Shown piece after piece: positions 1,746 through 49,199 of a DNA stretch of 64,000 nucleotides; the stretch's first letter is position 1, and every line of letters begins with the position of its first letter. The notes below the pieces were generated by a model. It was not told where the DNA came from. It searched no databases and saw only the letters and a list, made by a program, of their open reading frames with translations. The DNA comes from an uncultured candidatus Porisulfidus sp. (GTDB lineage: Bacteria; Pseudomonadota; Gammaproteobacteria; Poriferisulfidales; Poriferisulfidaceae). A program made the translations under genes and the position numbers. The stretch is from NCBI GenBank assembly GCA_965116025.1, contig OZ220480.1, positions 193,335-257,334 on the forward strand, read 5' to 3'.

Positions 1746-3527
1746 GTGCCATTTCTAATGCCATTGGCGCTATTGGCGGCGGGGCTTTCGGCGCTGGCGC
1801 TGCCGGCGCGGGCGGAGACGATCAACCTGTACGGGTGGCAGAACCACTCGTGGGAGTTCGTGGACATCGACGGCGGGCGCAGCTTCGACCGCATCCAGTC
1901 GAACGCCGGGAACATCGGCTTCTCGGCCAGCGTGGACACTGGCATGAGCGACATAAAGGTGAACCTGCAGTGCGAGCAGTTCACCTACTACAACCACTTC
2001 GCCGGCGGCACCGGCTGGTGCAACCGCAACTCCAAGATCGGGCTGGCGCACCCGATGGCCGGCGAGATCATGTTCGCCACCTGGCTGCTGCCGTACAACG
2101 AGGGCGTGGCCCAGTGGGTGGACCCGTTCTACGACGCCGGGGCCGACTCGCACACCAGCATCATGGGCTCGGTCGGGGCCAACACCATCTTCTACAACAC
2201 CGGCGACTTCGACCAGCAGGCGTCGGCGTCGGGGCCGGCGACCGGCTTCTCCGGGGCGGAGTTCAACTACGCCGGGGCCGGCTACGACACCGGCTTCAAC
2301 CGGCGCCAGGAGAACATCATCCAGTACTGGTCGCCGAACTGGAACGGCTTCGTGTTCCGCTTCGCCTGGACGGCCGGCAACCGCGACGAGACGAACGCGC
2401 CGACCGGCGGCGGGAAGATCGACCCGGTGATCCGCTCGAGCAGCCTGGCGTACACGAACGGCCCGCTGTGGCTGGCGGCGACCTGGCAGGACCACGAGGA
2501 CTGGACGGCGGTCTCGGTCGGGGAGATGGAGAGCTCGGACGCGGAGAGCTTCCGCCTGGCCGGGCGCTACATCATGGACCTGGGCGACGGCATGAGCGTT
2601 CAACTGTCGGCCATGTGGGAAACGCTGGAGTACGAGTTCCACGGCGTGACCACCATCGATAAGGCCATGAAGGCGTTCGGGTATGGGAATTTCATGGATT
2701 CTTACGAGTTGAGCGTCACGGATGCGGAGATAATGAAGAAGAAGACCCAAGGGCTGGCGCTCGATATCTTGACGGATGAGAAGGGCATGCTGATTCCTAT
2801 GGGGGACACGGCGCGGGGTTTATATGGGGAGCAGGTTAAAACCACTATGAGCCTGTACACCGCATACATGGGTGAGATAGACACCGTAACCTCCACCAGC
2901 TTGAACTTGGTCGCTGAACGCAGAACTGTGGTCGACTGGAACGACTATTACAAAGAGGCGCCTGATAATCCTGTTAAAGTCAGCACTACCGCCATGCGAA
3001 CCGGGTCCCAAAATGTCATGCTTTTCACGACCATGCTGAGCACGACTACGCTGAACGCGGCTAAAACGGCCGCGGAGGAGGCCAAAATGAAGGATATGGA
3101 TGATCGAACGGACGAGGACAAATCGAAAATCAAGTTCTATGACGATCTGGTCTCGATGGCGAAATCCCGAGCCCGCGACGAGAAGAGCATGGGCGGGAAC
3201 GTGAAGATCGAGCGAGACGCCTGGATGGTGTCGGGCAAGATCAAGTTCGGCGGCCCGCTGGACTTCCGCTTCTCCTACATGGACGCCGACGACCTGGAGC
3301 TGTCATGCAACTACTGCATGGGAGACTGGGACGAGACGGCGGCGGACGCCTGGAACGTCGGGGTGTTCTACACGATGCCGGCGGGAACCGAGCTGCGGCT
3401 GACGTATTCGGAGGTCAACAACGACGACAACGGGACCTACGGGCAGGGCATCTCGGGGACCGGCTTGGGAACGCCGGGGGCGGAGATCGAGATGTTCGCG
3501 CTGGGGATCGTGCACTGGTTCGACTGA
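1746..3527 (+). CDS. Porin-like outer-membrane protein with hypervariable central insert, copy A (N-block type 1, insert type alpha, tail TPGAE)
   Basis: 593 aa. The signal peptide MPLALLAAGLSALALPARA is followed by AETINLYGWQNHSWEFVDIDGG, which resembles the A(D/E)VTLYG start of general bacterial porins. It has the conserved C-terminal block SMGGNVKIERDAWMVSGKIKFGGPLDFRFSYMDADD...FALGIVHWFD. An in-frame ATG sits at 1758 inside ctaATGcc. It is one of 8 paralogs in the window. Confidence 0.8.
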   Translation: MPFLMPLALLAAGLSALALPARAETINLYGWQNHSWEFVDIDGGRSFDRIQSNAGNIGFSASVDTGMSDIKVNLQCEQFTYYNHFAGGTGWCNRNSKIGLAHPMAGEIMFATWLLPYNEGVAQWVDPFYDAGADSHTSIMGSVGANTIFYNTGDFDQQASASGPATGFSGAEFNYAGAGYDTGFNRRQENIIQYWSPNWNGFVFRFAWTAGNRDETNAPTGGGKIDPVIRSSSLAYTNGPLWLAATWQDHEDWTAVSVGEMESSDAESFRLAGRYIMDLGDGMSVQLSAMWETLEYEFHGVTTIDKAMKAFGYGNFMDSYELSVTDAEIMKKKTQGLALDILTDEKGMLIPMGDTARGLYGEQVKTTMSLYTAYMGEIDTVTSTSLNLVAERRTVVDWNDYYKEAPDNPVKVSTTAMRTGSQNVMLFTTMLSTTTLNAAKTAAEEAKMKDMDDRTDEDKSKIKFYDDLVSMAKSRARDEKSMGGNVKIERDAWMVSGKIKFGGPLDFRFSYMDADDLELSCNYCMGDWDETAADAWNVGVFYTMPAGTELRLTYSEVNNDDNGTYGQGISGTGLGTPGAEIEMFALGIVHWFD

Positions 3528-3551
3528 CCCGTTGGGTCATCCACGACAGCG

Positions 3552-3582
3552 AGCGGGCGCCTTCGGGCGCCCGCTTTCTTTG
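3552..3582 (+). terminator. Rho-independent terminator of porin copy A
   Basis: agcgggcgcc-ttcg-ggcgcccgct hairpin followed by ttctttg, about 25 nt after the stop codon. Confidence 0.7.
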
Positions 3583-4060
3583 AGGATCAGGATTCTCGAC
3601 TTGATCCGCCGCCACGAGGCAAATCGTGATGATGGCGGATCGCGAGAGCCAGATGTAACCGCTTCGGATGGTCGCGCGGGCGCTTGGAGTGATGCCACGA
3701 AAGCTGTGCGGGGCGTTCCGGCTTCAGGCTTTCATCAAAGATCGGAAACTCGATAGTTCCAGAGATCGATAGGCTGACCCCTGTTCGTCGCCACGCGGGA
3801 AGTCTGCTTGATCGAGGACGACGGGCCTCTCACCCTCTTTCCTCCCCGAGGCGCGCGCCGATCCACGCCCTCCGATTTCTCACCGCGTCTCTTATATCCA
3901 AGCGATATCAAGAATTCTCAGTCCACCGCACCACCTTGTGGTGGATCGGGTCATCCCGATCCGGTCTGCCGCGAGCGGATCGCCTTCCGGGCGCGTCGGA
4001 ACCAGGCCTCGCGCCGCCGGCGCTGGCCCGACTCTCGATCTGGTCGCGAAGCGCCGACCT

Positions 4061-4092
4061 CAAAGAAAGCGGGCGCCCGAAGGCGCCCGCTC
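4061..4092 (-). terminator. Rho-independent terminator of porin copy B (mirror image of 3552-3582)
   Basis: caaagaaa-gcgggcgcc-cgaa-ggcgcccgc on the plus strand, which is a hairpin plus U-tract on the minus strand. Confidence 0.7.
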
Positions 4093-4115
4093 GCTGTCGT
4101 GGATGACCCAACGGG

Positions 4116-5947
4116 TCAGTCGAACCAGTGCACGATCCCCAGCGCGAACATCTCGATCTCCGCCCCCGGCGTCCCCAGGCCGGTCCCCGAGATGCCCTGC
4201 CCGTAGGTCCCGTTGTCGTCGTTGTTGACTTCCGAATACGTCAGCCGCAACTCGGTTCCCGCCGGCATCGTGTAGAACACCCCGACGTTCCAGGCGTCCG
4301 CCGCCGTCTCGTCCCAGTCCCCCATGCAGTAGTTGCACGACAGCTCCAGGTCGTCGGCGTCCATATAGGAGAAGCGGAAGTCCAGCGGGCCGCCGAACTT
4401 GATCTTGCCCGACACCATCCAGGCGTCCCGCTCGATCTTCACGTTGGAGCTCATGGTTTGCTTCAGCTTGGCGTCGGCGTATTCCGTCATCTTCTTCTCG
4501 TACTCCATCACCTTCTCGTTGTGCGGCTCCAGGGCGTACTCCCTCGCCTTCGCCACGTATTCCTTGTAGAAGTCCATGTCCGTCTTGTCATCCAGATACT
4601 TCGTGGTCGATGTCTTCAACTTGTTCAGGATCGTGGTGCTCAGCTTGGTAGTCAGGGCCGCTTTGTACGCCGTGTTCAATCCCCCAGTGGTGAACCTGTA
4701 GTAGCGATCGATCGCTGGGATGTTCTGATAATTACTCCAACTTTGATTATCGAAGTATTTTTTATAGGACCCCCCGTATCACTAGGACTTAAGTCGGTGG
4801 GCCATACGGCCAGACCGGCCATGTTGGTCCTCCATTTCCCGTTCTCGTCCGTCAGCAGCTCGACCGCGAGCCCCCCGGTCATCTGCGCCTCTATCAGCGG
4901 CTTCAGCTCCGCTTCGGTGGGCATCGTCGGCTTCGTCGGCATGTCCATGTCGGCGGGGGCCATGACCTTCATGTCGTAGTAGGTTTTCTCGAAATGGTTG
5001 ATGTTGGGATCGGTACCGCCGTACCCGAACGCCTTCATGGCCTTGTTGATGTCGGTCACGCCGTGGAACTCGTACTCCAAAGTCTCCCACATGGCCGACA
5101 GTTGAACGCTCATGCCGTCGCCCAGGTCCATGATGTAGCGCCCGGCCAGGCGGAAGCTCTCCGCGTCCGAGCTCTCCATCTCCCCGACCGAGACCGCCGT
5201 CCAGTCCTCGTGGTCCTGCCAGGTCGCCGCCAGCCACAGCGGGCCGTTCGTGTACGCCAGGCTGCTCGAGCGGATCACCGGGTCGATCTTCCCGCCGCCG
5301 GTCGGCGCCATCGTCTCGTCGCGGTTCCCGGCCGTCCAGGCGAAGCGGAACACGAAGCCGTTCCAGTTCGGCGACCAGTACTGGATGATGTTCTCCTGGC
5401 GCCGGTTGAAGCCGGTGTCGTAGCCGGCCCCGGCGTAGTTGAACTCCGCCCCGGAGAAGCCGGTCGCCGGCCCCGACGCCGACGCCTGCTGGTCGAAGTC
5501 GCCGGTGTTGTAGAAGATGGTGTTGGCTCCGACCGAGCCCATGATGCTGGTGTGCGAGTCGGCTCCGGCGTCGTAGAACGGGTCCACCCACTGGGCCACG
5601 CCCTCGTTGTACGGCAGCAGCCAGGTGGCGAACATGATCTCGCCGGCCATCGGGTGCGCCAGCCCGATCTTGGAGTTGCGGTTGCACCAGCCGGTGCCGC
5701 CGGCGAAGTGGTTGTAGTAGGTGAACTGCTCGCACTGCAGGTTCACCTTTATGTCGCTCATGCCGGTGTCCACGCTGGCCGAGAAGCCGATGTTCCCGGC
5801 GTTCGACTGGATGCGGTCGAAGCTGCGCCCGCCGTCGATGTCCACGAACTCCCACGAGTGGTTCTGCCACCCGTACAGGTTGATCGTCTCCGCCCGCGCC
5901 GGCAGCGCCAGCGCCGAAAGCCCCGCCGCCAATAGCGCCAATGGCAT
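4116..5947 (-). pseudogene. Porin-like OMP copy B (N-block type 1, insert type beta), frameshifted at a C6 (coding-strand G6) tract at 4770-4775; possibly phase-variable
   Basis: An ATG start at 5947 gives MPLALLAAGLSALALPARAETINLYGW... (ORF 4676-5947). The frame is lost after ...TDLSPSDTGG. A second frame (ORF 4116-4679, open upstream to 4774) carries YGGSYKKYFDNQSWSNYQNIPAIDRYYRFTTGGLNTAYKAALTTKLSTT...GIVHWFD. One extra G in the G6 tract fuses the two frames into a full-length paralog. Confidence 0.75.
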
Positions 5948-6171
5948 TAGAAATGGTATCGTAGGGCATCAGCAAATCGAAAAACTCTCCACGGAATATC
6001 TGGCCAAAACGTCGCTTCTCCCATATATTGTTCGGTGAAATTCCGCCTCCCAAACTCTCGATTTCCGTTCCCTAGATTCCGCATTGAATTGCGGCACCAT
6101 TTCCTTTGTGGGAAAATAAGACGCTATGGGACGGGATTATCAATGTTGGCAAGGAAACCGGGAGAGGGTTG

Positions 6172-7395
6172 ATGAGAGGAACTAGAGTCCCACCGCGAAT
6201 CGAGCGATTAAAGGTGCAGAACTTCCGCGCGTTGCGCGATGTGGAGCTAAACCTTACGCCGCTCACCGTGTTACTTGGCCCAAATGGCAGTGGAAAGTCC
6301 ACGATTTTTGATGTCTTCGCCTTTTTGGCAGAGTGTTTTGAGAGCGGGCTACGTCGAGCGTGGGAAAAACGTGGCAAAGCTCGGGAACTTAGGTCGCGGG
6401 GCGGAGAGGGTCCTATATTGATTGAAATCGCATATCGCGAAAAACCGCGCACACCCTTGATCACGTATCACCTTCAAGTGGACGAGAAAAATGGCCGACC
6501 TCGCGTGGTCTGCGAATGGCTCCGATGGAAGCGGGGGCGCTACGGGCAACCGTTCAAATTTCTCGATTACGCGGACGGAGTTGGGCAGGTCATCTCGGGT
6601 GAGATGCCTGACGCGCGGGCTGAGCGGATAGAGATCCCTTTGAGTTCTCCTGATACGCTCGCGGTTAACGCGCTTGGCCAACTGGCGGAAAATTCTCGTG
6701 TCGTCGAGCTGAGAGATTTCATCATGGGATGGCATGTGTCCTACTTGTCAGCCGAGGATACGAGAGGACAACCGGAAGCGGGGCCACAGGAACGCCTGAG
6801 CAGGACAGGAGACAATCTCGCTAACGTGATTCAATATCTGTCCGAAGAACATCCAGAACTTTTGGAGTCCATTCTTGGCAGCATCAGAGAAAGGATCCCG
6901 AAAGCCCAGAGCGTGGTGGCGGACCAGATGCCGGACGGAAGGTTGTTGCTGAAAATCAAGGATGCCCCATTCGCTGACCCCGTCATGGCGCGCTTCGCGT
7001 CCGATGGCACACTTAAAGTGCTCGCCTATCTAGTCTTGTTGCGTGATCCAACCCCTCCTCCTTTTATTGGCATTGAGGAGCCGGAGAACTTCCTGCATCC
7101 ACGCCTGCTTCACGGTTTGGCGGAAGAATGCCGAACCTCCTCCGAGGCCACACAGGTCCTCGTGACCACCCATTCTCCTTTTTTCCTTGATGCGCTTCGT
7201 CCCATGGAAGTTCGGGTGTTGTGGCGCGACGAATTCGGTTACACGAGATGCGACCCCTTGGATGAGAACAAAAAAATTTTGGCGTTTATGGAAGCGGGCG
7301 CCCAGCTTGGAGATCTTTGGATGGAAGGACATTTCGGGGTTGGAGATCCGCTGACTTCGGAAGGAATGGCCATGCCGGGAAGAGGCGGGAGCTGA
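6172..7395 (+). CDS. ABC/AAA-type ATPase (AAA_21/OLD-like ATPase domain), first gene of a two-gene cassette
   Basis: Walker [12 protein letters not shown], Walker-B-like [13 protein letters not shown] and H-loop [10 protein letters not shown] are present. The start is probably the ATG at 6172, preceded by GGAGAGGG (the ORF track extends to 6106). GC is roughly 50-57% against ~62-68% in flanking core genes. The stop is 1 nt from the next gene's ATG. Confidence 0.7.
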
Positions 7396-7396
7396 C

Positions 7397-8014
7397 ATGC
7401 CCGCGTCTCATTTGGAGTTCCTCGTGGAGGAGCGTTCCATGGAAGCGTTTCTCGTTGCTTGGCTACCAAAGTTTCTGCCGGAGGGCTGCACTTTCAAGGT
7501 CTATGCGCACCAAGGCAAAAACGCGTTGTTGAGAAAAATCGAAGATCGACTCGGAGCATATAAGGCATGGATGCCAAACGAATGTCGTATCGTGGTGGTA
7601 GTGGACCGCGACCGGGATGCGTGCGATGAACTCAAGCTCAAGATGGAGCGATTCTGTGAGAAAGCGGGATTGCGGTCGAGACGGGCCGCTGATGGTTCGG
7701 ACTGGCAAGTGGTGACGCGGATAGCCATAGAAGAGCTTGAAGCATGGTATTTTGGGGACTGGCAGGCGGTGTTGGCCGCTTTTCCGGGTGTCGCGGAGAA
7801 TATCCCAGACCGCGCGGCTTACCGGGATCCAGATGCGATTCAAGGTGGAACTTGGGAGGCATTCGAGCGGATTCTCCAGAAACATGGATATTTCGCGCAA
7901 GGACTGGCAAAAGCGCAGGCCGCTAGCGAGATTGGCCGACATATCGACCCTGTTCGCAATCGGTCCCGCAGTTTTATCGTTTTTCGCGATGCCATCGTCG
8001 ATGCCACCACATGA
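7397..8014 (+). CDS. DUF4276-family protein, predicted TOPRIM-like partner of the upstream ATPase
   Basis: 205 aa beginning MPASHLEFLVEERSMEAFL, with a DxD-type acidic motif IVVVVDRDRDAC and EELEAWYFGDW. This matches my recollection of the DUF4276 family, which characteristically follows AAA_21 ATPases. Translationally coupled. Confidence 0.55.
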   Translation: MPASHLEFLVEERSMEAFLVAWLPKFLPEGCTFKVYAHQGKNALLRKIEDRLGAYKAWMPNECRIVVVVDRDRDACDELKLKMERFCEKAGLRSRRAADGSDWQVVTRIAIEELEAWYFGDWQAVLAAFPGVAENIPDRAAYRDPDAIQGGTWEAFERILQKHGYFAQGLAKAQAASEIGRHIDPVRNRSRSFIVFRDAIVDATT

Positions 8015-8123
8015 ACATGCCATAGAAGCTATCGTGTTTCCGCAATTGAAATATCTTTGCTATGGCTATAGGAAAGCCGGTTTTCAGGACCCTCTGACCT
8101 CTGCGGTAAAATAATCGCCCAGC

Positions 8124-9308
8124 ATGATTTTCTGGGCCCGCCGAGCCCGAAGCCGGACTTTCAGGAGACGTTACTTGGCCAAACGCGCGTTGCTCGCTCT
8201 CGAAAACGGCGCGTTGTTTTTCGGAGATTCCATCGGGGCGAACGTCACCGCCATCGGGGAGGTCGTCTTCAACACCTCCATCACGGGCTACCAGGAAATC
8301 TTGACTGACCCGTCGTATTGCCGCCAACTGATCACGCTGACGCATCCGCATATCGGGAACGTCGGGGCGAATGACGAAGACAGCGAATCCGGCGCTCCGG
8401 CGCGCGCCGCTGGCCTGATCGCGCGCGATGTCCCTGCGCGCGCGAGCAACTGGCGCGCCAAGCGGTCTTTAGGGGATTTTCTTGACGAGCACGGACTGCC
8501 TGGGATCGTGGGCATCGACACGCGCCGCCTCACGCGAATCCTGCGCGACCAAGGAGCCCAGTCGGGTTGCCTCACGACCGATGTCTCCGACCCGGACCAA
8601 GCGGTCGATCAGGCCCGCGCGTTCCCGGGGCTAGCGGGAATGGATTTGGCGCGAGAAGTCTCCACGAAGGAGTCGTACGAGTGGGACGAGGGACCTTGGG
8701 GGGCAATGCCAGACGAGCTGCCGCCCGCGCGATATCGAGTTGTGGCTTACGACTACGGGATCAAGCGAAACATTCTCCGCCTCCTGCGCGCGCGCGGATG
8801 CGCGGTCACGGTCGTGCCGGCCAAGACCCCGGCATCCGAGGTGCTGAGCCGGGATCCAGATGGAGTTTTTCTATCCAACGGACCTGGAGATCCAGATCCA
8901 TGCACGTACGCCCGGGACACGATCCGAGAATTGATCCAGACCCGGACTCCGATGTTCGGCATCTGCCTTGGTTGCCAGTTGCTCGGCTTGGCCAACGGAG
9001 CGCGCACGGTCAAGATGAAGACCGGGCATCACGGAGCCAACCACCCAGTTCTCGAGATGGACACGGGCCGGGTTCTGATCAGTAGTCAGAACCATGGTTT
9101 CGCGATTGAGGAAGAGTCTCTTCCAGAATGCCTGCGCTTGACCCACCGCTCGCTTTTCGACGGCACCGTGCAAGGCATCCGGCATGTCGAGGCCCCAGCG
9201 TTCGCTTTCCAAGGACACCCGGAAGCGAGCCCCGGGCCACGCGACTTGGCTGGCTTGTTCGATCAGTTCATCGACCTGATGCGGCATCGCCCCGGACGAC
9301 TTGGTTAA
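8124..9308 (+). CDS. carA: Carbamoyl-phosphate synthase small subunit; true start probably downstream of 8124 (TTG near 8175, [17 protein letters not shown])
   Basis: Glutamine amidotransferase region with GICLGCQLL and HGANHPV motifs. The N-terminal domain [32 protein letters not shown] is collinear with CarA. Confidence 0.85.
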
Positions 9309-9312
9309 CGCC

Positions 9313-12300
9313 ATGGCGAAGCGGACCGATATCGAGAGCGTCCTCGTGATCGGGGCAGGACCAATCGTCATCGGCCAAGCCTGCGAATTCGATTACTCCG
9401 GGGCGCAAGCTTGCAAGGCGCTACGCGAGGAAGGCTACCGCGTCATCTTGGTCAACTCCAACCCCGCCACCATCATGACCGACCCGCAGATGGCGCAATC
9501 CATTTATATCGAGCCAGTCGAGTGGCGAACGCTGTCGCGCGTCATTGAGCGTGAGAAGCCGGACGCGTTGTTACCAACCATGGGCGGACAGACCGCGTTG
9601 AACTGCACGCTGGACCTGCATCGAGAGGGAACGTTGCAGGCTCATGGCGTGGAGTTGATTGGCGCCTCCCTTGAAGCCATCGCGATGGCCGAGGACCGGC
9701 AACTGTTCCGGGAGGCTATGGAGGAGATCGGGCTGGAGCAGGCGCGGTCCCGGGTGGTGCGCGGCGTGGAGGAGGCGCTGGGCTTTCAGCCCCACATCGG
9801 CTATCCCGTCATCGCGCGGCCCTCGTTCACCTTGGGCGGAACGGGAGGGGGCGTGGCCAGGAGCGAGGAGGAGCTCAGGCGCGTCGTCGCGCACGGGTTG
9901 GATCTGTCGCCCACCCGCGAGGTCCTTTTGGAGGAATCTCTTCTGGGCTGGAAGGAATTCGAGATGGAGGTGGTCCGCGACGCCAAGGACAACTGCATCA
10001 TCGTCTGCTCGATCGAGAATCTGGATCCGATGGGGGTGCACACCGGAGACTCGATCACGGTCGCGCCAGCGCAGACCTTGACGGACAAGGAATACCAGCG
10101 GATGCGCGACGCCTCCATCGCGGTATTGCGCAAGATCGGCGTGGACACTGGTGGTTCCAACGTGCAGTTCGCGACGCATCCAGGAACTGGGCGATTGCTC
10201 ATCATCGAGATGAACCCGCGCGTCTCGCGCTCCTCGGCGCTGGCCTCCAAAGCGACCGGATTTCCTATCGCCAAGGTGGCGGCCCGCCTGGCCGTGGGCT
10301 ACACCCTGGACGAGTTGCGCAACGACATCACGGACGGCGCGACTCCGTGCTCGTTCGAGCCGACTCTGGATTACATCGTGACCAAGATCCCGCGCTTCAC
10401 GTTCGAGAAGTTTCCGCAGGCGGAACCGCTCCTGACGACCCAGATGAAATCGGTCGGGGAGGCGATGGCGATCGGGCGCACCTTCCAGGAATCCTTGCAG
10501 AAGGCGTTGCGTAGCTTGGAGACTGGGCAATGCGGACTGGATCCGCTTGGCCCGATGGATCGGGAAGAGCGGAAAGATCGGCTAGTCCACCCGGATCCGC
10601 ATCGGCTGAGACATGTCGCCGACGCCTTGCGCGAGGGCTGGAGCCTGGAGGAGATCCACGAACTGACCGGCATCGATCCGTGGTTCATCGCGGAAATCGA
10701 GGATCTTGTGGCGCGTGAGCGAGCCCTGTCGGGAAGGGACTTGGACGACTTGTCGAGGGAAGAGTTGCTCGTCCTGAAGCGCGCCGGGTTTTCGGACCGG
10801 CGCCTAGGGCAATTGCTTCATGTGGATGAGGAAGACGTGCGCGCGCGGCGTCACGCGCAGGGCCTGCGGCCAGTATACAAGCGGGTCGACACTTGCGCGG
10901 CGGAGTTTCCGACTTCCACGGCCTATCTCTACTCCACCTACGAGGAGGAATGCGAGGCCCGACCGACGAACGCGCGGAAAGTGGTGGTGCTCGGCGGCGG
11001 CCCAAACCGAATCGGACAGGGCATCGAATTCGACTACTGTTGCGTGCATGCCGCGCAGAGCGCGCGCGAGCTGGGCTTCGAGACCATCATGGTCAACTGC
11101 AATCCAGAGACGGTCTCCACCGATTACGACACTTCCGATCGTCTGTATTTCGAGCCTCTCGCGCTGGAGGACGTGCTGGAGATCCTGCATGTCGAGCGTC
11201 CGTACGGAGTGATCGTCCAGTTCGGGGGGCAGACTCCCCTGAAACTCGCTCAAGGATTGGCGCGGGCGGGGATCCCGATCCTGGGCACGTCCCCGGACGC
11301 GATCGACGCTTCCGAGGATCGAGAGCGCTTTACCGGAGTGCTTGATCGCCTAGGCCTGCGTCAGCCGCCGGGGGGAACGGCGCGCGACCGCGAGGGAGCG
11401 CTGAGGTTGGCCCGCGAACTAGGCTATCCTTTGGTCGTGCGGCCTTCCTACGTGCTGGGTGGGCGGGCGATGGAGATCGTGTTCGACGAAGTGGAACTCG
11501 AGCGCTACATCAAGGACGCGGTCCAAGTGTCCGACCAGACCCCGGTGTTGCTCGATCGCTATTTGCAGGACGCGGTGGAAGTCGATGTCGACGTGGTGCG
11601 CGATGGGGAGGAAACGCTGATCGGAGGGATCATGCAACACATCGAGCAGGCCGGGATCCACTCCGGGGATTCGGCCTGCTCCCTGCCCGTCTACTCGATC
11701 GAGGAACCGGTCCTGGATATCCTGCGCGACCAAGCCACGGCGCTGGCGCGCGCGCTGGAGGTGGTGGGCCTGATGAATATTCAGTTCGCGGTGCGGGGAG
11801 ACTCGATCTACGTGATCGAGGCCAACCCCCGCGCCTCGCGTACCGTGCCGTTCGTTTCCAAAGTGACCGGTCGCTCGCTGGCGCGGATCGCGACCGCCTG
11901 CATGCTGGGCCGGTCCTTGCGCGAGCAAGACTGCCGCGAGGAGGCGCGGCTGGAATACTTCGCGGTTAAGGAAGCGGTGTTTCCCTTTCTCAAATTCTCG
12001 GGGGTCGACCCGATCTTGGGCCCGGAGATGAAGTCGACCGGCGAGGTGATGGGGGTTGGCGAGCGCTTCGAGGAGGCGTTCGCCAAATCGCAACGCGCGG
12101 CCGGGGTGCGCATCCCAACTGGCGGGCGAGCCCTGATCAGCGTGCGAGACCAGGATAAGCCTGGATGCTCTCGGTTGGCGCGCGAACTGCTCGCGGCTGG
12201 CTTCGAACTGGTGGCGACCCACGGAACGGCGGAACACTTGCGCCAGGAAGGCCTGGACTGCGCTGGCATCAACAAGGTGGCGCAAGGCTCGCCTCATGTC

Positions 12301-12552
12301 GTTGACAGGATTCGGGGCGGCGAGATCGACTTGATCATAAACACGACCCAAGACAAGCTGGCGATCCGCGATTCGCTAGCCATTCGCCGGGAAGCGCTGC
12401 AACGTCAAGTTTGCTACACGACGACCTTGACCGGCGCCAGCGCGTTGGTCCGCGTGTTAAAATCCGAGGTGATCGAGGATGTGTATCAATTGCAAGCCTT
12501 GCACGAGAAGCGCGTGCGCCGGATGCCGGCGCGAGATGATGTTTCCGAATAG
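9313..12552 (+). CDS. carB: Carbamoyl-phosphate synthase large subunit
   Basis: ~1080 aa beginning [37 protein letters not shown], with duplicated ATP-grasp halves and a C-terminal MGS-like domain. ATG at 9313; the ORF track's 9301 start is a short N-extension. Confidence 0.9.
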
Positions 12553-12564
12553 ACCGGGAGATTG

Positions 12565-13041
12565 ATGGGCATGGTGCCAATGACCGCGCGCGGGGCCTCC
12601 CTCTTGCGCGAAGAGCTTGAGCGGCTCAAGCGAGTGGAGCGCCCGGCCGTCATCCAAGCGATCGCTGAGGCGCGCGCCCATGGGGATTTGCGCGAGAACT
12701 ACGAGTACAAGGCGGCGCGGGATCAGCAAGGATTCCTGGAAGGACGCATCAAGGAAATCGAGGCCAAGCTATCTCGCGCGCAGGTCATAGACATCTCCGA
12801 ACTGCAACTCAACGGCAAGGTGGTGTTCGGCACCACGGTGGAATTGGTCGACTTGGAATCTGGAGAGCGGGTGCGCTACCAGATTGTTGGCGAGGATGAG
12901 GCGGATATCGAGAAAGACCGGCTCTCGGTGCATACGCCGATCGCTCGGGCGTTGATCGGACGCCCGGAGGGAGAAGAGATAACGGTGGAAACGCCGGGCG
13001 GGAAAAGGGTTTTCGAAATTGTCGCGGTGCGCCGCGAATAA
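12565..13041 (+). CDS. greA: Transcription elongation factor GreA
   Basis: [22 protein letters not shown]...[26 protein letters not shown] is collinear with GreA. GGGAG lies upstream of the ATG. Confidence 0.85.
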
Positions 13042-13118
13042 TCAGGACCGCGTAGACCGCTCGCTTACCACCATCCCGCCGCTCTTCACGGGCGTACAAT
13101 GACTCTTGCGTTCACGAG

Positions 13119-15929
13119 TTGAAGCGGCGCATGCGAAAAACCACCATTTCGACCTCTTGGTTCATTCGCTGGACCCTCGTCGCTCTGACGCTGATTCTGG
13201 CCGCGTCCCCGGCGTGGGCCGAAAGCGCGTCAAAGCCATCCGGCGATTTAGAGCAAGTGACGGTGACTGGATCTCGCATCAAGCGGACGTTGCAACAGGA
13301 TGTCGCCACGCCACTGGCGAGCTACGATTTGGAAGATCTTCGGAATCTGGGCGCCAGCGATATCCGGGATCTGGTGCAGTCGCTGCCCGGCAACGCCGGC
13401 GCCCAGAACAACGCTGACGCTCTTTCGCAGAACTACACGGTCGGCACCTCGAACATTAATCTTCGCGGACTCGGAGTGTCCTCGACCTTGGTGCTGCTCA
13501 ACGGTCGCCGGCAGGTCGTCTCGGCGCTTCCCACCATCGACGGATCTAGTTTCGTGGATCTGTCGGCATTGGTGCCGACGCTCGCGTTGGAGAGGGTCGA
13601 GATCCTGAAAGACGGAGCGGCCGCGGTCTATGGTTCAGACGCTATCGCCGGCGTCGCCAATTTCGTCACCCGCTCCGATTTTCGAGGATTCGAAGTAGCG
13701 GCCGAGCGTCGCGAGCGGACCAACGACGGATCCCAGTCGGATGATCGCGTGGAACTCGTGTATGGACGAGATTTTATAGAATCTGGCGATCTGCTGCTCG
13801 CGCTGAGTTATTTGGATCGGACGCGGCTGGTTATGGATGAGGTTTCTTGGGTCACCCCGTCGTGGAGCACCGCGGCGAATCCTGGTAATTTCGTCATGTT
13901 GGGCGAGACGGCTTTGCCGGACGGAACCCGGCTAGCGTCCGGCGCGATCACGGCCGCGCCCCATTGCTCCGAGCACGTCCCGCCAGCCAGTTACGTCCCG
14001 CCAGCGGCCTTCGCCAAGAACTCTGGAACGCACAGCGTCTGTCGTTTCGACTATGGACCGCAGGTTACGGTCGTGCCAGAGGAAGAGCGAGTCCAGGCTT
14101 TCGCCCAACTCAAATTCGGTCTTGGCGAGAAGGCCCGCCTGACGGCGGAACTCGGCTACGCGCGAAACGATATCCGCCGCCTCATCTCTCCCAGCCTTCC
14201 CGCCATCAGTCCCAATCTGTCCTACATTCCGGCCATGCACCCCGGCAACCCGTTCCGAAATGACGATGGCGACCCAGTCGCGGCGCGCTACATCGGTCGC
14301 GTATATGGTGTCAGCGAGCCGCCCGAGACCAACGATTTCAAGAACGAGACAAGCCGCATGGCGCTGATGGCCGAAGGCGACGCGACTGACCGTCTGTCGT
14401 GGGAAATGTCCTTCCTGCATGCCCGTAGCGATATCGATTGGCGGATCCCCGACACGCTATACCGCAATCTGCAGAGCGCCATGGGCGCGGGCGAGAACGA
14501 TACCGCCTTGCTCGGCGTGGGCCCGGACTGTCCAGTCGATCGCGGCGCTCTTGAGAAAGGAGATGTCTGCCTGTTCTACAATCCGTTCAGCGTCGCCAAC
14601 AAGGTGCTGGCCATGACTTGGGATGGCGGCGCGTTCGGAGGAACGCGCGCTGGCACGGCGGGCGAGCAAGCGTTCATGCGCGACTATCTTCTCGCGGACG
14701 CGCTTGGCGCCGCCGAATCCGAGTTGAACGTCTTCGAGGCGGTTTTGACCGGCGATGGAATGTCTCTGCCAGGCGGCAATCTAGTCGGCTACGCCCTCGG
14801 CATTCAGTACCGAGACGAAACCATTCGTGGCGATTTCAGCTCGCTCTTCAACGACTTCGAGTTCTCGTTCGTAGGGGGAGGCCCCGACTATTCTGGCTCC
14901 CGGGACGCTATCGCCGTCTTCGGTGAGGTTTTGTTGCCTTTGGGGCCGGATCTTGAGGCGACGCTTGGCGCGCGCCATGAGGACTACGGAGGCGCCATCG
15001 GTAGCGCGACCGATCCGAAGCTGTCTCTGCTCTGGACGCCAACGAACATTCTTTCGCTACGCGCTTCCGCGAGCAGCTCGTTCCGCGCTCCCGCGTTGCA
15101 CCAAACGCAGGGCGTGCAAACGTCCTTCTCCGATATCGTGGAAGGCGGGCGACAGTTCTTCGTCCCCAACCTGACCTACGGCAACGAGAATCTAAAACCG
15201 GAAACCGCCACGTCTCTGAATCTGGGCGGCTCCATAGCCGTGGAAGATTGGGAGCTCAACCTGGATTACTGGAACTTTCGCTTCGAGGACGCTCTGGCGC
15301 GCGAGAACCCTCAGTCGGTCGTCGAGGCCGACGCGCGACGCGTCGCCGCTGGCGAGGAGAGCCGTGTGATTCGCACGGCGGACGGAACGGTCGCTCGCGT
15401 TCGCACTCGATACATCAACACCGACGAGATCCGCGCCTCTGGATTGGATTTCTCGGTCAGCGGGAGAATCTGGACGGAATTCGGGAGCCTCCTTCCCGGC
15501 TTGCGGGCGACGCGCGTCCTCGAATACGAGATCACGCGCCCCGACGGGCGAAAGATCGATGGGGCCGGCTACCTGAATTTCGCCAATATTGGCAGTCCCA
15601 TGCCGGAATGGCGTGGCGCGCTGAGTCTGGTCTGGCGGCGCGGCGACCACCAAGCGGGCTTGACTCTCAACTACACGGATGGCTATCAGTATCGCCGCTC
15701 AGTCGCGGCCTTGGATCGCATCGATTCCACTACCACCCTTGATTTCCAGTATCGCCTCACTCTCGGAGGACTGTTCGACTCGGATTCCGAGACATCGCTG
15801 ACGGCCGGGGCGCTCAACATCATGGACGAGGACCCACCGTACGTGAACATACCCGGTGGGTACGACTCGCGCACCGCCGACCCACGGGGGCGACGGGCGT
15901 ACGTGTCGATCCGGTCCCGTTTCGAATGA
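13119..15929 (+). CDS. TonB-dependent outer-membrane receptor
   Basis: Signal peptide, TonB box EQVTVTGSR, and plug domain (NINLRGLGVSSTLVLLNGRR, ALERVEILKDGAAAVYGSDAIAGVANFVT), followed by a ~700-aa barrel. The C-terminus ...SIRSRFE has the terminal aromatic displaced by one residue. Confidence 0.8.
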   Translation: MKRRMRKTTISTSWFIRWTLVALTLILAASPAWAESASKPSGDLEQVTVTGSRIKRTLQQDVATPLASYDLEDLRNLGASDIRDLVQSLPGNAGAQNNADALSQNYTVGTSNINLRGLGVSSTLVLLNGRRQVVSALPTIDGSSFVDLSALVPTLALERVEILKDGAAAVYGSDAIAGVANFVTRSDFRGFEVAAERRERTNDGSQSDDRVELVYGRDFIESGDLLLALSYLDRTRLVMDEVSWVTPSWSTAANPGNFVMLGETALPDGTRLASGAITAAPHCSEHVPPASYVPPAAFAKNSGTHSVCRFDYGPQVTVVPEEERVQAFAQLKFGLGEKARLTAELGYARNDIRRLISPSLPAISPNLSYIPAMHPGNPFRNDDGDPVAARYIGRVYGVSEPPETNDFKNETSRMALMAEGDATDRLSWEMSFLHARSDIDWRIPDTLYRNLQSAMGAGENDTALLGVGPDCPVDRGALEKGDVCLFYNPFSVANKVLAMTWDGGAFGGTRAGTAGEQAFMRDYLLADALGAAESELNVFEAVLTGDGMSLPGGNLVGYALGIQYRDETIRGDFSSLFNDFEFSFVGGGPDYSGSRDAIAVFGEVLLPLGPDLEATLGARHEDYGGAIGSATDPKLSLLWTPTNILSLRASASSSFRAPALHQTQGVQTSFSDIVEGGRQFFVPNLTYGNENLKPETATSLNLGGSIAVEDWELNLDYWNFRFEDALARENPQSVVEADARRVAAGEESRVIRTADGTVARVRTRYINTDEIRASGLDFSVSGRIWTEFGSLLPGLRATRVLEYEITRPDGRKIDGAGYLNFANIGSPMPEWRGALSLVWRRGDHQAGLTLNYTDGYQYRRSVAALDRIDSTTTLDFQYRLTLGGLFDSDSETSLTAGALNIMDEDPPYVNIPGGYDSRTADPRGRRAYVSIRSRFE

Positions 15930-16036
15930 AAACAGATTTTTGATTCGACGGGCGCGCCCTCGCCTCGCGGCGATCAGGAAGAATCGGGACGAAACGCCAT
16001 TGACGATTTTCGCGCGCGTGATTCGATAAGCGGGTG

Positions 16037-16099
16037 TATAATTAGCGGCAGGAGATCATCCGGGTTCCAAAGAGAAGCCCCCGAAAGGGGGTTTCTGTT
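16037..16099 (+). promoter_or_regulatory. Candidate -10 box (TATAAT 16037-16042) plus leader hairpin and U-tract (gccccc-gaaa-ggggg tttctgtt, 16077-16099) upstream of rimP
   Basis: The -10 hexamer is perfect but no good -35 was found. A GC hairpin followed by a T-run sits 14 nt before the rimP ATG and resembles a leader attenuator or terminator. Confidence 0.3.
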
Positions 16100-16112
16100 A
16101 GGTGCGGGAGGA

Positions 16113-16586
16113 ATGTTGATGAGGGCCGATGGCGCGACTCACACATTGAGATCCCTGGTCGCTCCCCAAGTCGAGAAAATGGGCTATGAGTTATGGGGGC
16201 TGGTGTGCCGGCTCGGCGCGCGCCAGGGTCGGGTGTGCGTGTATATAGACCATCCGGACGGCATCAGCCATGCGGATTGCGAGGTCGTGAGCGACCAAGT
16301 GAGCGGATTGCTGGACGTGGCGGATCCGATTCGAACCCCGTATCGGCTGGAGGTTTCCTCGCCGGGGCTGGACCGGCCGTTGCTGTGTCCGGAACACTTC
16401 CGGCGTTATCGGGGCTCGCGGGTCGACATGCGCTTGCGCTGGCCGCTGGAAGGACGCCGCCGTCTGTTTGGGCGAGTGGAGGAAGCCGACGGTGACGCCG
16501 TGGAAATCCGGGAGGAGGATGGGCGGACGTTCGTGGTTCCGTACAACGTGATCGCGCGGGCGCGATTGCATTACGAGGAGGAATGA
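16113..16586 (+). CDS. rimP: Ribosome maturation factor RimP
   Basis: ...VSDQVSGLLDVADPIRTPYRLEVSSPGLDRPL... is collinear with E. coli RimP. It is the first gene of the rimP-nusA-infB-rbfA-truB block. Confidence 0.85.
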   Translation: MLMRADGATHTLRSLVAPQVEKMGYELWGLVCRLGARQGRVCVYIDHPDGISHADCEVVSDQVSGLLDVADPIRTPYRLEVSSPGLDRPLLCPEHFRRYRGSRVDMRLRWPLEGRRRLFGRVEEADGDAVEIREEDGRTFVVPYNVIARARLHYEEE

Positions 16587-16592
16587 CTGGCG

Positions 16593-18089
16593 ATGGGCGA
16601 TGACGTGATAGACGTTCTGGGCGTGGTTGATGCCGCTTCCGCGGAGAAGGGCATTGAGCGCGAAGTGATTTTCGAGGCTCTGGAGATGGCGCTGGCCGCC
16701 GCGACCCGCAAGAATCTGGGTGGCGATGCCGACGTTCGCATCGCCATCGACCGGGAAACGGGAACCTACGAGACCTTCCGGCGCTGGCTGGTGATGGCGG
16801 ACGACGACCCCGAGTTTCAGTCGCCCGATGGGCAGAGGCTGTTGAGCGTCGCGCGGCAGACCGATCCGGGGGACCCAAAGCTTGAGGTCGGAGACTACAT
16901 TGAGGAACCGATCGATTCAGTAGACATCGCGCGGATTTCCGCGCATACCGCCAAGCAGGTCATCGTGCAAAAAGTGCGCGAGGCGGAGCGAGCGCAGATC
17001 GCGGAAGCCTACCAGGACAAGGTCGGCGAGTTGCTCATTGGGATCGTCAAGCGAGTCGAGAACTCTGGGGCTTACATAGACTTGGGCGGCAACACGGAAG
17101 GATTCATTCCGCGAGAGGACACCATCCAGCGCGAAATCATTCGCACGGGCAACCGACTGCGCGCCTATCTGCGCGAGGTGCGCGAGGAAGCCCGAGGCCC
17201 GCAACTGATCCTGTCCCGGACCGTTCCGGAGTTCCTGGTCCAGCTGTTTCACTTGGAGGTTCCAGAGATCGACCAAGGACTCATCGAGATCGTGGGAGCG
17301 GCTCGGGACCCAGGAATTCGCGCCAAGATCGCGGTGCGCACCAACGATTCGCGACTGGACCCGGTCGGCGCCTGCGTGGGCATGCGGGGATCCCGGGTGC
17401 AGGCGGTCTCCAACGAGCTTTCGGGCGAGCGCATAGACATCATCACCTGGAACGAGAACGCGGCGCAATACGTGATCAACGCCATGTCGTTGCCTTCGGT
17501 CGACGAGATCGTTCAGGACGAGGAAGGGAAGGTTATGGACATCGCGGTCGAGGAGGATCGTCTGTCGCAGGCGATTGGCCGCAACGGGCAGAATGTCCGT
17601 CTGGCGAGCCAGCTGACCGGTTGGACGCTGAACGTCATGACCGCGCAGGAGTTGCGCGAGAAAAGCGACCAGGAGCAACGGGCGCTGGAGGAGCGCTTCC
17701 AGCAAGAGCTGGATGTCGATGAGCACATCGCGGCGATTCTGGTGGAGAATGGCTTCCGCGAGATCCAGGAGTTGGCGTATGTCCCGGATCAAGATCTTCT
17801 GCAGGTGCCCGAATTCAACGAGCAAGTGGTGACGGAGCTAAAGGAGCGGGCGCGAGACAGTCTGGAGCAGAGCGCGGAGGTGGCGGAAGACGAGGATATC
17901 CTCAACGTCGAGGGAATGGATCCCGACCTCGCTATGCAACTGGCGCTTCATGGCATCACCACGCGGCGGCAGCTAGCGGAACTGGCCCTGGACGAGTTGC
18001 CCGAGATCGAGTCGTTGGACGAGGAGCGCGCGGGCGCCTTGATCATGAAAGCGCGAGAAAATCTGGAACTGCAGTTGCCGGACGCTTGA
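16593..18089 (+). CDS. nusA: Transcription termination/antitermination factor NusA
   Basis: 498 aa with S1 and KH domains ([25 protein letters not shown]) and C-terminal acidic repeats. Confidence 0.9.
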
Positions 18090-18100
18090 GGCGCGCCAAC

Positions 18101-20500
18101 ATGCCCACGATCGCCGAATACGCCCCATCCTTGCGCATGTCGCCCGAGCAGTTGCTCGCGATGTGCCAGCGGGCTGGACTGGCGAAGCGCGACGAGTCGG
18201 ACGCGCTCAGTGACGAGGACAAGAAACAGTTGGTGCGCTACATGCGCGGCGGCGGACCCATGGGCGCGACGCTGGTGAAGTCCCGGCCATCGGCTGGCCA
18301 GGTCGAGATCCCGAGGACGGGCGGACCCGGCCGCAATCGAGTCAAGGTCAAGCTCAAGGGCAAGTATCGCGTGGTGCGACCCAAGATCGAGACGAGTGAA
18401 AAGACGCCAGAGCCACCTGTCGAGCCCGCGCCCGAGGTCCAGTCCGGGTCCCCTGCCGAAGTGAAGTCGGAGGAGCCGCGAGAGGAGCGGCCGGAGAAGC
18501 CCGCCACGCAGCCCAAGGAAGAGAAGAAAACCCCTGCCGCGCCGCCTCGCTCTGGGCGAAAGGGTAAGCCGCGCTCCAAGCCGCGCGACGCCAAGGATTC
18601 TCGCGGCAAGGCGCCCTCAGGCCGAGGGCGGCGCCGTGGCCAGTTGCACATAGACGACCAACGCCGAACGCGCAAGCCACGCGCCAAGAAGCAGGGCAAG
18701 GTGGTGGTCGACAACAAGCATCAGTTCACCGAGCCAACCGCCCAGATCGTGCGGGAGGTCGTCTTGGGGGGGCCGATGACGGTGGCGGAGCTGGCGATGG
18801 CGATGGCGGTCAAAGCCTCCGCGGTGATCAAGACCATGATGGAACTGGGCGAGACGGCCACCATCAATGATGTGCTGGATCCCGACACCGCGGAGTTGGT
18901 CGTCGAGAACATGGGACACAAGGCGCGGCGCTCCCGCGACGAGGATGTGGAAGCGGGCTTGCTTTTGGATTCCGCGTCGGAAGGCGATCCCGTGCCGCGC
19001 CCGCCCGTGGTGACCGTCATGGGGCATGTCGATCATGGAAAAACCTCGTTGCTGGACCATCTGCGAGAAACTCGAGTGGCCGCCGGCGAGGCGGGCGGGA
19101 TCACCCAGCACATTGGCGCCTACCAGCTGGAGACGCCGCGCGGCAAGATCACGTTCCTGGACACGCCCGGGCACGCCGCGTTCACCGCGATGCGTGGACG
19201 TGGCGCTCGGTGCACCGACATCATCGTGCTGGTGGTCGCGGCCGACGATGGCGTGAAACCGCAAACCGAGGAGGCGATCCGGCACGCGCGGGAAGCGGAA
19301 GTCCCGATCATCGTGGCGATCAACAAGATTGATCGCGAAAACGCGGATATTGAGAAGGTGCGCACGGAGCTCACGGCTCTGGGCTTGCAGCCCGAAGATT
19401 GGGGCGGCGATACGATGTTCGTACCGGTCTCGGCCAAAACGGGAGAGGGAATGGACGCGTTGCTGGAGGCTATCTCCCTGCAAGCCGAATTGATGGACCT
19501 CAAAGCACCAGCCGAGGGCATGGCCCGTGGCGTGGTGATCGAATCCAGTCTGGATCGCGGCCGTGGCTCGACCGTGACGGTGCTGGTCGAGGAAGGACGT
19601 CTGCGTCAGCGCGATCTGCTTCTGTGCGGCCAGGAATACGGGCGAGTCAGAAGCATCTTCGACGACAACGGGCGAAAAGTCGACCAAGCGGGACCGTCTT
19701 CCCCGGTGCTGGCGCTGGGCTTGTCGGGAGTCCCCCAAGCGGGGGATCCTATGCATGTGGTGGCGGACGAGCAAAAGGCGAGGGAAATAGCCGATTATCG
19801 AAAGGAGGCAGCGCGACGCCAGCAGACGGACGAGCCGCGCGAGGCTAGCCTGGCCTGGGCGATGCAAATGGGCGAGGAGCGGAAAGCGGCACTCAATCTG
19901 ATCATCAAGACGGACGTGCGCGGGAGCGGCGAAGCCCTTCGGGGAGCGCTGGATGGCTTGTCCACCGACGAGGCGACTATCAAAATCGTGCTATCAGGGG
20001 TCGGGGGCATCAACGAATCCGATGCCTTGCTGGCGGATGCCTCCAAGTCCACCCTGCTAGGCTTCAACGTGCGCGCCGATAGCGCGGCGCGGCGCGTCGT
20101 CGCGGACCGAAGCCTGGACTTGCGCTATTACAGCGTGATCTACGAGCTGGTCGACGACATCAAGGAAATGCTGGAGAAGCAATTGGCTCCAGAAGTCCGC
20201 GAGGAGATCATGGGACTGGCGAACGTCATCGAGGTCTTCCGTTCCAGCAAGATGGGTCCAGTCGCCGGTAGTCGGGTGGACCAAGGCGTGGTCCAGCGAG
20301 GTGGCTACCCAATCCGGGTGCTACGCGACAACATAGTCATTTACGAGGGAGAACTAGAGTCTTTGCGGCGCCACAAGGAGGATGTCCAGGAAGTGCAGGC
20401 CGGTACTGAATGCGGCATAGCGGTGGCCAACTACAACGATGTGCAGGTCGGCGACCAGATCGAGGTGTACCGCCGCGTGGAGACCGCCCGCACGCTTTAA
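18101..20500 (+). CDS. infB: Translation initiation factor IF-2
   Basis: GTPase motifs [14 protein letters not shown] and DTPGH, a K/E/P-rich N-terminal region, and C-terminal beta-barrel domains. The likely ATG is at 18101 (MPTIAEY); the ORF track starts at 18086. Confidence 0.9.
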
Positions 20501-20509
20501 GGAAGGCGA

Positions 20510-29802: not shown

Positions 29803-29975
29803 TGGGATTAGAAATGGTATCTCCTCGAAATCCCAATCCCACCGAGAACCATGATGACCATGCGCCCCAAGACTCCGCCCAAGAGACCGTGGAAACCGAA
29901 ATCCACCGATCCCCGGAGCATGGGAAACTGAGACGAAACCATGGCTGATTCTGAAACTTCGGGATGACTCCAACT

Positions 29976-33033: not shown

Positions 33034-33057
33034 GCGAGCGTCCTATTGGGGTCGGGC

Positions 33058-33145: not shown

Positions 33146-33183
33146 GCATAGCGTTCCGGTGGACCGCGTCCGCGCGAGCCAGT

Positions 33184-33993: not shown

Positions 33994-33995
33994 CT

Positions 33996-35141: not shown

Positions 35142-35171
35142 CGGATGCTCGGCATCGAGCCACCTTCACCT

Positions 35172-49181: not shown

Positions 49182-49199
49182 ATGAAGGAGAAAATAAAA

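Follow-up and report, generated by a model that had tools for sequence, protein, structure and literature searches.

A two-gene cassette upstream of carA

The window analysed here is a 64,000-nucleotide stretch of contig OZ220480.1 from an uncultured Candidatus Porisulfidus sp. Between a porin gene and carA it carries two adjacent plus-strand genes that we assign to HEC-01, a two-gene candidate defence system. The first, HEC-01A (6172..7395, +), encodes an ABC-type (AAA_15/AAA_21) ATPase of 407 residues, not 408 as stated in a first-pass annotation of this DNA, and was identified from PADLOC and Pfam matches, motif conservation, and a structural model. The second, HEC-01B (7397..8014, +), encodes a Toprim-like DUF4276 protein of 205 residues, identified using PADLOC, Pfam, an AlphaFold2 model and Foldseek. 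The ATPase open reading frame (ORF) runs from an ATG at 6172 to a TGA at 7393-7395, and the lone base 7396 separates it from the ATG of the DUF4276 ORF at 7397; the length of the second protein and the 1-nucleotide (nt) gap agree with the earlier calls. This adjacency and co-orientation correspond to the gene order of HEC-01. Both exact protein sequences, with identical starts, are deposited in NCBI/ENA on one 2,018,984-bp contig. The 407-residue public protein agrees with the ATPase start at 6172, and a public 377-residue carA product implies a carA start (TTG) at 8175.

The pair was compared with the best 80 related loci, drawn from contigs with one genome per species. Counts of hsdR neighbours, stop/start spacings and GC content refer to 80, 73 and 75 related loci or pairs, respectively. 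The ATPase gene lies immediately upstream of the DUF4276 gene in 79 of the 80 loci. In the window, the two genes meet at TGA-C-ATG (7393..7399, +), with GGGAG 6 nt upstream of the second ATG, an arrangement that is consistent with translational coupling. Of the intact related pairs, 18 have a spacing of -4, 11 of -1, 32 of +1 and 5 of +2 (66 of 73 together), a pattern that points to coupling as a conserved feature. Based on this spacing, the upstream ATPase gene and the 4219 homologues found for the DUF4276 protein, the ORFs are not chance occurrences. A Shine-Dalgarno-like GGGAGAGGG (6160..6168, +) lies 3 nt before the ATPase ATG. Upstream of the ATPase gene, only one sequence resembles a sigma-70 promoter, TGGCCA-17-TATATT (6001..6029, +); the match is weak and, at 1 site versus 1.0 expected from shuffled sequence, is no evidence on its own.

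The cassette occupies a low-GC island (6017..8174) between the end of a porin-upstream repeat, whose homology stops at 6016, and the start of carA. GC content over 6001-8000 is 0.51-0.57, as compared with 0.62-0.65 for carA and carB and 0.61-0.68 for the flanks overall. Thus, the GC contrast drawn in the first-pass annotation stands, although its upper figure of 68% for carA was too high. At third codon positions, GC content (GC3) is 0.59 and 0.58 for the pair versus 0.72 for carA, 0.80 for carB and 0.88-0.93 for the upstream porin genes. Nucleotide homology between the window and the related loci spans 6190-8014 and no further, so the two ORFs alone make up the conserved unit. Neither the window nor the 80 related loci revealed a recombinase, terminal repeats or conserved ends accompanying the cassette. 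An imperfect 16-nt inverted repeat brackets it at 6084-6099 and 8035-8050, both intergenic (core TTGAATTGCGG / CCGCAATTGAA). We ruled this repeat out as a mobile-element end because the homology with the 80 loci covers only 6190-8014 and because 17 pairs of this kind occur within 2.8 kb; it is not conserved among related loci and probably arose by chance.

Assignment to HEC-01

HEC-01, "Hma-embedded candidate 01", was described by Payne et al. 2024 (bioRxiv 10.1101/2024.01.29.577857) as an ABC ATPase paired with a Toprim-like protein in which the metal site of B. pseudomallei OLD (BpOLD) is conserved. The window ATPase matched the PADLOC HEC-01A model PDLC04182 with an E-value of 1.8e-154 and 512.6 bits (residues 8-392 of 407; profile positions 2-404 of 406). 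Similarly, the DUF4276 protein matched the HEC-01B model PDLC04202 with an E-value of 1.5e-80 and 268.1 bits (residues 5-202 of 205; profile positions 2-199 of 204). In Pfam, the first protein matched AAA_21 (1e-29) and AAA_15 (2.6e-20), and the second DUF4276 (4.7e-26). The window pair thus matches both HEC-01 models nearly end to end and has the same order of ABC ATPase gene and Toprim-like DUF4276 gene; membership of the locus in HEC-01 is almost certain. The first-pass annotation had mentioned ATPase-DUF4276 pairs as candidate defence systems and proposed a PADLOC run; such a system exists, and it is PADLOC HEC-01. The system type is already catalogued, so the locus is a further member of a known candidate family. 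This family is moderate in size, with 1216 clusters at 50% identity (E up to 1e-3) in a set of 1.84 billion representatives. The window copy lies outside Hma or any other defence system.

Secondary PADLOC matches were to AriA (1.3e-28), AbiLi (4.8e-24), mad3 (1.6e-23), Old (4.5e-17), GajA (5.4e-16) and mad4 (1.1e-5), and the ATPase also matched the NCBIfam MAD3 equivalog (8e-33). These matches could suggest a fragmentary or divergent form of PARIS (AriAB), MADS (Mad3/Mad4), AbiL, OLD or Gabija. However, each is far weaker than the HEC-01 match, those to AriA, AbiLi, mad3, Old and GajA by at least 100 orders of magnitude, and the MAD3 score of 114 bits compares with a cut-off of 420. Matches at the mad3 level are uninformative because the window's own RecN matches PADLOC mad3 at 1e-32, more strongly than the ATPase does; membership in MADS by way of mad3 was discounted on this ground. 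Among its 12 PADLOC hits, the DUF4276 protein matched no AriB, AbiLii, Old, GajA or RloB model. No methyltransferase, helicase or other mad gene adjoins the pair, and ATPase and Toprim reside on separate proteins, unlike in OLD and GajA. It is therefore highly improbable that the pair represents one of these named systems.

The ATPase

Residue conservation was scored across 74 homologues, with residues classed as invariant or at least 90% conserved. On the plus strand, the conserved motifs are Walker A, GPNGSGKST (G36-K42; 6277-6303), the ABC signature SDGT (S277, G279 and T280; 7000-7011), Walker B, IGIEEPE (G300 and E302-N306, EEPEN; 7066-7086), and the H-loop TTHSP (T332-P336; 7165-7179). 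Together with Q170, they are invariant or at least 90% conserved and constitute the motifs of an ABC ATPase. All motifs quoted in the first-pass annotation are present, namely GPNGSGKST at 6277-6303, a 12-residue Walker-B stretch at 7066-7101, TTHSPFF from 7165 and, in the second protein, MPASHLEFLVEE and IVVVVDRDRDAC.

Every solved structure matched by the ATPase model is a defence ABC ATPase. PtuA from Septu and from the retrons Ec78, Eco7 and Ec83 gave E-values of 1e-13 to 1e-11, and the Thermus OLD (TsOLD) gave 5e-11. A sequence search of the ATPase likewise matched TsOLD and PtuA. These results and the AAA_21 and AAA_15 matches bear out the earlier description of an AAA_21/OLD-flavoured ATPase. 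HEC-01A falls into one broad class of ABC-type ATPases together with PtuA, AriA and the OLD and GajA ATPase domains. Judging from its motifs, the encoded ATPase looks catalytically competent, and the Toprim-fold protein with which it is paired appears to carry a complete acidic site.

The N-terminus of the ATPase also weakly matches SMC_N, RecF, Rad50 and SbcC models, and five Latescibacterota copies of the pair lie beside ribonucleotide reductase and tRNA synthetase genes, as might be expected of a housekeeping module for DNA repair or recombination that, in the manner of RecF/Rad50-SbcCD, combines an ATPase with a Toprim nuclease. Against such a role, the weak matches are confined to approximately 40 residues surrounding Walker A and lie far under curated cut-offs; the pair is patchily distributed across phyla, has atypical GC3 and is absent from the nearest relatives; and the window has a separate recN at 38836-40521. 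We consider a housekeeping function very unlikely indeed.

The DUF4276 protein

An AlphaFold2 model of the DUF4276 protein, based on an alignment of 49 sequences, had a mean predicted local distance difference test score (pLDDT) of 86.2 and a predicted template modelling score (pTM) of 0.83. The modelled strands comprise residues 5-10, 32-37, 63-70 and 105-111 and alternate with helices; the C-terminal half is helical. The predicted structure has the three-layer alpha/beta arrangement and four-stranded parallel sheet of the Toprim fold. In the PDB, the top Foldseek match was 6nk8_B, the C-terminal Toprim-plus-helical region of BpOLD (E 4.8e-5, probability 1.00, TM-score 0.44), and it was the only fold match below an E-value of 1e-3. 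The second match was PH0156 (2p62; E 2.6e-3). A link to DUF3226 through PH0156 is unsupported: no sequence match to 2p62 was found, and hhalign of DUF3226 against DUF4276 gave a probability of 0.7%. In a viral structure library, an RloB-like protein was the only meaningful match to the model (probability 0.94).

Across the 74 homologues, residues E11, K41, D70, E113 and E115 never vary, nor does the block ELEAWYFGDW (113-122), and conservation is at least 90% at E12, D72 and E112. The Toprim glutamate E11, with E12 (7427-7432, +), lies at the end of strand 1; D70-R-D72, within IVVVVDRDRDAC (7604-7612, +), lies at the end of strand 3; and in the acidic block E112-E113-L-E115 (7730-7741, +), E113 and E115 directly follow strand 4. 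The protein thus has a glutamate after strand 1 and a DxD after strand 3, as in the Toprim motif. In BpOLD, which binds two Mg2+, E400 and D455/D457 bind metal A while E404, T506 and E508 serve metal B. The acidic residues of the DUF4276 protein match these metal-site residues in kind and order; for metal B the mapping is by position only. A 2025 analysis of Menshen (PMC12065111) placed both DUF4276 and the MADS protein Mad4 in the Toprim superfamily, with the conserved Glu and DxD. The Toprim-like partner proposed in the first-pass annotation is thus borne out by the four-strand core, the placement of E11 and D70-x-D72, the 6nk8 match, and two papers that arrived at this assignment independently. 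We infer that HEC-01B is a small, metal-dependent nuclease with a predicted Toprim fold.

Comparison with known systems

PARIS likewise divides an AAA_15/21 ATPase and a small Toprim effector between two genes, and it provides a plausible model for HEC-01 in which the nuclease stays sequestered by the ATPase until a trigger appears. Its effector AriB is a DUF4435 protein, whereas the window effector matches DUF4276 only and not AriB, and the AriA match is partial; the pair does not belong to PARIS. In the OLD and Gabija systems, the C-terminal region of BpOLD is the nearest fold to HEC-01B, with equivalent Glu, DxD and second acidic pair, and HEC-01A resembles TsOLD in sequence and model. OLD and GajA carry ATPase and Toprim in one polypeptide, whereas the window has two ORFs with partial Old and GajA matches, which places the pair outside these families. 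Next to the window pair there is neither a UvrD-like GajB nor a helicase partner of class 2.

In MADS and Menshen, Mad4 and some effector (NsnC-C) domains are DUF4276 Toprim modules (PMC12065111). The window matches to these systems are weak (the mad4 and MAD3 values given above), their other genes are absent, and the pair is flanked by a porin gene and carA; it is not a MADS member. Septu and retron PtuA provide the best solved fold for the window ATPase (E ~1e-13) as well as a sequence match, but PtuA partners with the HNH nuclease PtuB whereas the window ATPase partners with a Toprim protein. Finally, RloA/RloB and AbiLi/AbiLii share the habit of ATPase and Toprim-like pairs inside type I restriction operons. 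RloB, like DUF4276, is a newly recognised Toprim family (PMC12065111). RloB and AbiLii are separate families, to whose models the DUF4276 protein has no sequence-level match. Overall, the likeness to OLD, Gabija and PARIS noted in the first-pass annotation holds for the ATPase-plus-Toprim logic but does not extend to membership in any of these systems proper.

Foreign origin and spread of the cassette

In the four nearest carA relatives, carA is 81, 78, 73 and 73% identical to that of the window, and carA-carB-greA is kept in all. The HEC-01 pair is absent upstream of carA in all four; the genes found there are, relative by relative, TraG-like, HTH and TnpB genes after dapB; a methyltransferase, a large helicase and AAA_14; a BMFP-domain protein; and purD. 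Copies of the pair, spread over at least 11 phyla, are 65-83% identical in the ATPase and 53-74% in the DUF4276 protein. For comparison, CarA shares 64-66% identity with most of the listed matches beyond its closest relatives, and the named ones are gammaproteobacterial. Low GC3, absence upstream of carA in the four relatives and cross-phylum identity together support the horizontal acquisition suspected in the first-pass annotation, and the pair is foreign at this locus.

The copies occur in Alpha-, Beta- and Gammaproteobacteria, Binatia, Acidobacteriota, Thermodesulfobacteriota, Cyanobacteria, Actinomycetota, Rhodothermales, Latescibacterota, Entotheonella, Planctomycetota and Chloroflexota. 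The clade of the window copy derives mainly from uncultured metagenome-assembled genomes (MAGs), many of sponge-symbiont lineages. Sponge-associated names among the hosts include Ca. Poriferihabitaceae, Poriferisocius, Entotheonella, Ca. Synechococcus spongiarum and Aphanocapsa feldmannii; judging from such record names, many copies probably derive from sponges. As the closest copies span at least 11 phyla and many are sponge-named, the data suggest that the cassette is shared within sponge microbiomes. The GC content of the cassette tracks that of the host in part (slope 0.56, r 0.71) and is below that of the flanks in 58 of the 75 loci; it is only partly ameliorated. Several related copies are interrupted or truncated, with frameshifts in L012, L042, L053, L057, L071 and L078 and no ATPase in L076, which points to frequent decay after transfer.

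Nine plasmids carry the HEC-01 family, which is rare in phage records. An unverified gut viral contig, MT836340.1 (L086), has a true HEC-01 pair followed downstream by a helicase gene and then an integrase gene. At 2734-4620 of this locus, a PDLC04182 HEC-01A (1.4e-167) is paired with another HEC-01B subfamily, PDLC04206 (5.6e-96), indicating that ATPase and Toprim subfamilies can recombine.

The compactness of the cassette, with homology confined to the two ORFs, its cross-phylum spread, its plasmid copies and the copy near an integrase, and its partial amelioration could also befit a selfish addiction cassette. In such a cassette, the ATPase would restrain a toxic nuclease, and the pair would persist through transfer and post-segregational killing with no defence benefit. 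However, no recombinase or terminal repeats travel along, and the restriction-gene enrichment and one positive phage assay described below favour defence. Addiction and defence roles are not mutually exclusive. We regard the purely selfish reading as improbable.

Association with type I restriction

The three nearest ORFs on each side of the pair were surveyed and clustered in the 80 loci. An HsdR-type gene occurs within three genes in 16 loci, directly downstream in 11, and an HsdS-like protein is encoded upstream of the pair in seven. In a Pfam scan, HSDR_N was found in 12 of 125 immediate neighbours (64 loci) versus 0 of 114 control ORFs at a distance of over 6 kb in those loci (Fisher p = 4e-4). 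One control gene encodes a long ankyrin-repeat protein. Further AAA_21 ATPases, Fic/RhuM, ThsB-TIR, Phd/YefM and DUF1828/1829 are among the remaining near neighbours. At most related loci the neighbours are ordinary, including the five Latescibacterota loci beside ribonucleotide reductase, in agreement with the remark of Payne et al. (bioRxiv 10.1101/2024.01.29.577857) that such candidates are mostly without defence-island enrichment. Close homologues are thus recurrently embedded in type I restriction operons. The neighbourhood analysis proposed in the first-pass annotation showed the pair to be conserved, with hsdR nearby in some loci; in the window, the pair does not lie in a defence island.

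The Meiothermus taiwanensis plasmid pMtWR-220 (L085, record 47824-59681) has the order hsdM-DUF262-hsdS-DUF4433-macro-AAA-DUF4276-hsdR. Three modules lie between hsdM and hsdR in this type I operon: DUF262, DUF4433 with macro (DarT/DarG-like by domain names), and AAA with DUF4276. In three loci from cyanobacterial MAGs (L030, 2992-4923; L033, 10834-12894; L040, 10835-12742, labelled Synechococcus sp. SB0662_bin_14), neighbour clustering revealed the HEC-01 pair, then a pair comprising a second ATPase (AAA_15/AAA_21) and DUF3226, and then hsdR; this order amounts to two ATPase-plus-small-protein modules in tandem in one type I operon. At L001 (6442-8733), a 764-residue AAA_13 ATPase (E 5.7e-162) is encoded immediately before the HEC-01 pair and likewise upstream of an HsdR-type gene; it constitutes an additional ATPase module in that restriction locus.

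This placement raises the question of whether the pair is a type I restriction-modification accessory guard, like PrrC with EcoprrI, that works only with Hsd, the orphan in the window being functionless and decaying. The hsdR neighbours, the Meiothermus operon and the interrupted or truncated copies are as such a guard would predict. Some 80% of related loci, however, have no nearby hsd gene; the window ORFs are full-length with every invariant residue intact; and Payne et al. (bioRxiv 10.1101/2024.01.29.577857) picked HEC candidates because they also occur outside host systems. Strict dependence on Hsd is accordingly quite improbable. A broader proposal, which we find unlikely but would give somewhat more weight, is that the clade may be a sponge-microbiome cassette, spread by horizontal gene transfer over at least 11 phyla at 55-83% protein identity, of anti-anti-restriction guards. 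These would sense phage inhibitors of type I enzymes and release the DUF4276 nuclease, possibly against an RNA target (tRNA, as with AriB) instead of DNA, and orphan copies could act autonomously.

Proposed mechanism and published activity

Overall, the locus is probably an intact, stand-alone, horizontally acquired copy of HEC-01, in which an ATPase would control a Toprim nuclease in a defence role. The coupled operon would supply both proteins in fixed proportion, and the ATPase and DUF4276 protein may assemble as a complex. By analogy to PARIS, OLD and Septu, the ATPase would be the sensor and gate of the nuclease inside that complex. An infection cue, possibly a phage anti-restriction factor or another phage product, would lead ATP binding or hydrolysis to license the Toprim protein. 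The licensed nuclease might then cut DNA, as do OLD and GajA, or tRNA, as does AriB, such that the phage is stopped or the infected cell killed. The anti-restriction factor is a conjecture prompted by the placement of homologues next to hsdR and, in the Meiothermus plasmid, between hsdS and hsdR. Any specific trigger or substrate is much less probable than the overall interpretation.

Several points weigh against this interpretation. In the study of Payne et al. (bioRxiv 10.1101/2024.01.29.577857), the HEC-01 representative protected against no BASEL or classic coliphage. The ATPase model, built on a shallow alignment (75-83% identity), is of moderate quality (pLDDT 65, pTM 0.72), with low-confidence inserts at 134-172 and 191-216, and the TM-scores of both proteins to solved structures are only ~0.4-0.45. 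An alignment profile of the DUF4276 protein found no significant solved structure among PDB sequences, so the Toprim assignment is one of predicted fold and motifs. Moreover, no restriction system or recognised defence gene lies within approximately 6 kb upstream or 15 kb downstream of the pair. In a PADLOC scan of the 42 other ORFs of the window, the nearest and only plausible defence-type candidate was a NERD-helicase gene at 23331-25007, which makes the pair a solo system in the window.

The published anti-phage activity of the family is mixed. In a later cold-seep study, one HEC-01 representative shielded E. coli B from at least one of T4, T5 and T7, and HEC-01 was among the more abundant candidate systems in environmental metagenomes. 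The positive test gives no magnitude for HEC-01, and the representatives tested are sequences other than the window copy, which likewise tempers the defence reading.

Other features of the window

Upstream of the pair are murA (inferred from its translation), mlaC and two inverted porin paralogues. Downstream are carA, carB, greA, a TonB-dependent receptor gene, and rimP, nusA and infB, the last three named by comparison with the nearest relative. The NERD-helicase gene (23331-25007, -) encodes 558 residues with NERD and UvrD-like helicase regions and matches PADLOC RTasNERD-Hel (DRT-associated) at 1.6e-55 over nearly its full length. Its GC3 of 0.66 is below that of its neighbours, and no reverse transcriptase gene lies beside it.

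The 64 kb contain eight Porin_4 paralogues of approximately 600-690 residues, mostly in inverted pairs and with GC3 of 0.84-0.93: 1746-3527 (+), 4116-5947 (-), 25439-27268 (+), 27895-29973 (-), 44062-45948 (+), 46542-48449 (-), 51591-53486 (+) and 54085-55998 (-). The first 930-1070 nt of the copies are 92-99% identical and the last ~340 nt 94-97%, while the central 500-600 nt are variable. The set looks like a cassette-style variable outer-membrane protein family, whose variation possibly diversifies a phage receptor or host-interaction surface. The copy beside the HEC-01 cassette is split into ORFs at 4116-4679 (-) and 4676-5947 (-) that overlap by 4 nt in the variable middle, a split that may reflect a frameshift, a pseudogene or a repeat assembly error.

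Transposase genes lie among the porin copies at 30068-31309 (+; DDE_Tnp_1 with DUF4372), 49182-50357 (+; IS110) and 59720-60601 (-; DDE_Tnp_1). The nearest relative (L081) is arranged as grpE-dnaK-dnaJ-dapB-TraG-like-...-carA-carB-greA-...-rimP-nusA-infB. The window carries dapB-dnaJ-dnaK-grpE and a TraG-like gene at 31.5-37.9 kb (31474-37854), on the strand opposite to the 8175-21786 block. Conjecturally, an inversion between two porin copies in inverted orientation, 4116-5947 and 25439-27268, would return these genes to the order of the relative.

Significance

Every testable element of the interpretation offered in the first-pass annotation is supported, and the pair is better labelled HEC-01 (candidate defence) than "AAA family ATPase / DUF4276". 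On its own, the locus adds little. The comparative data, however, provide experimental handles in the form of invariant residues, conserved coupling, recurrent placement near hsdR and a symbiont clade spanning many phyla. These handles make the idea of a type I restriction guard testable.

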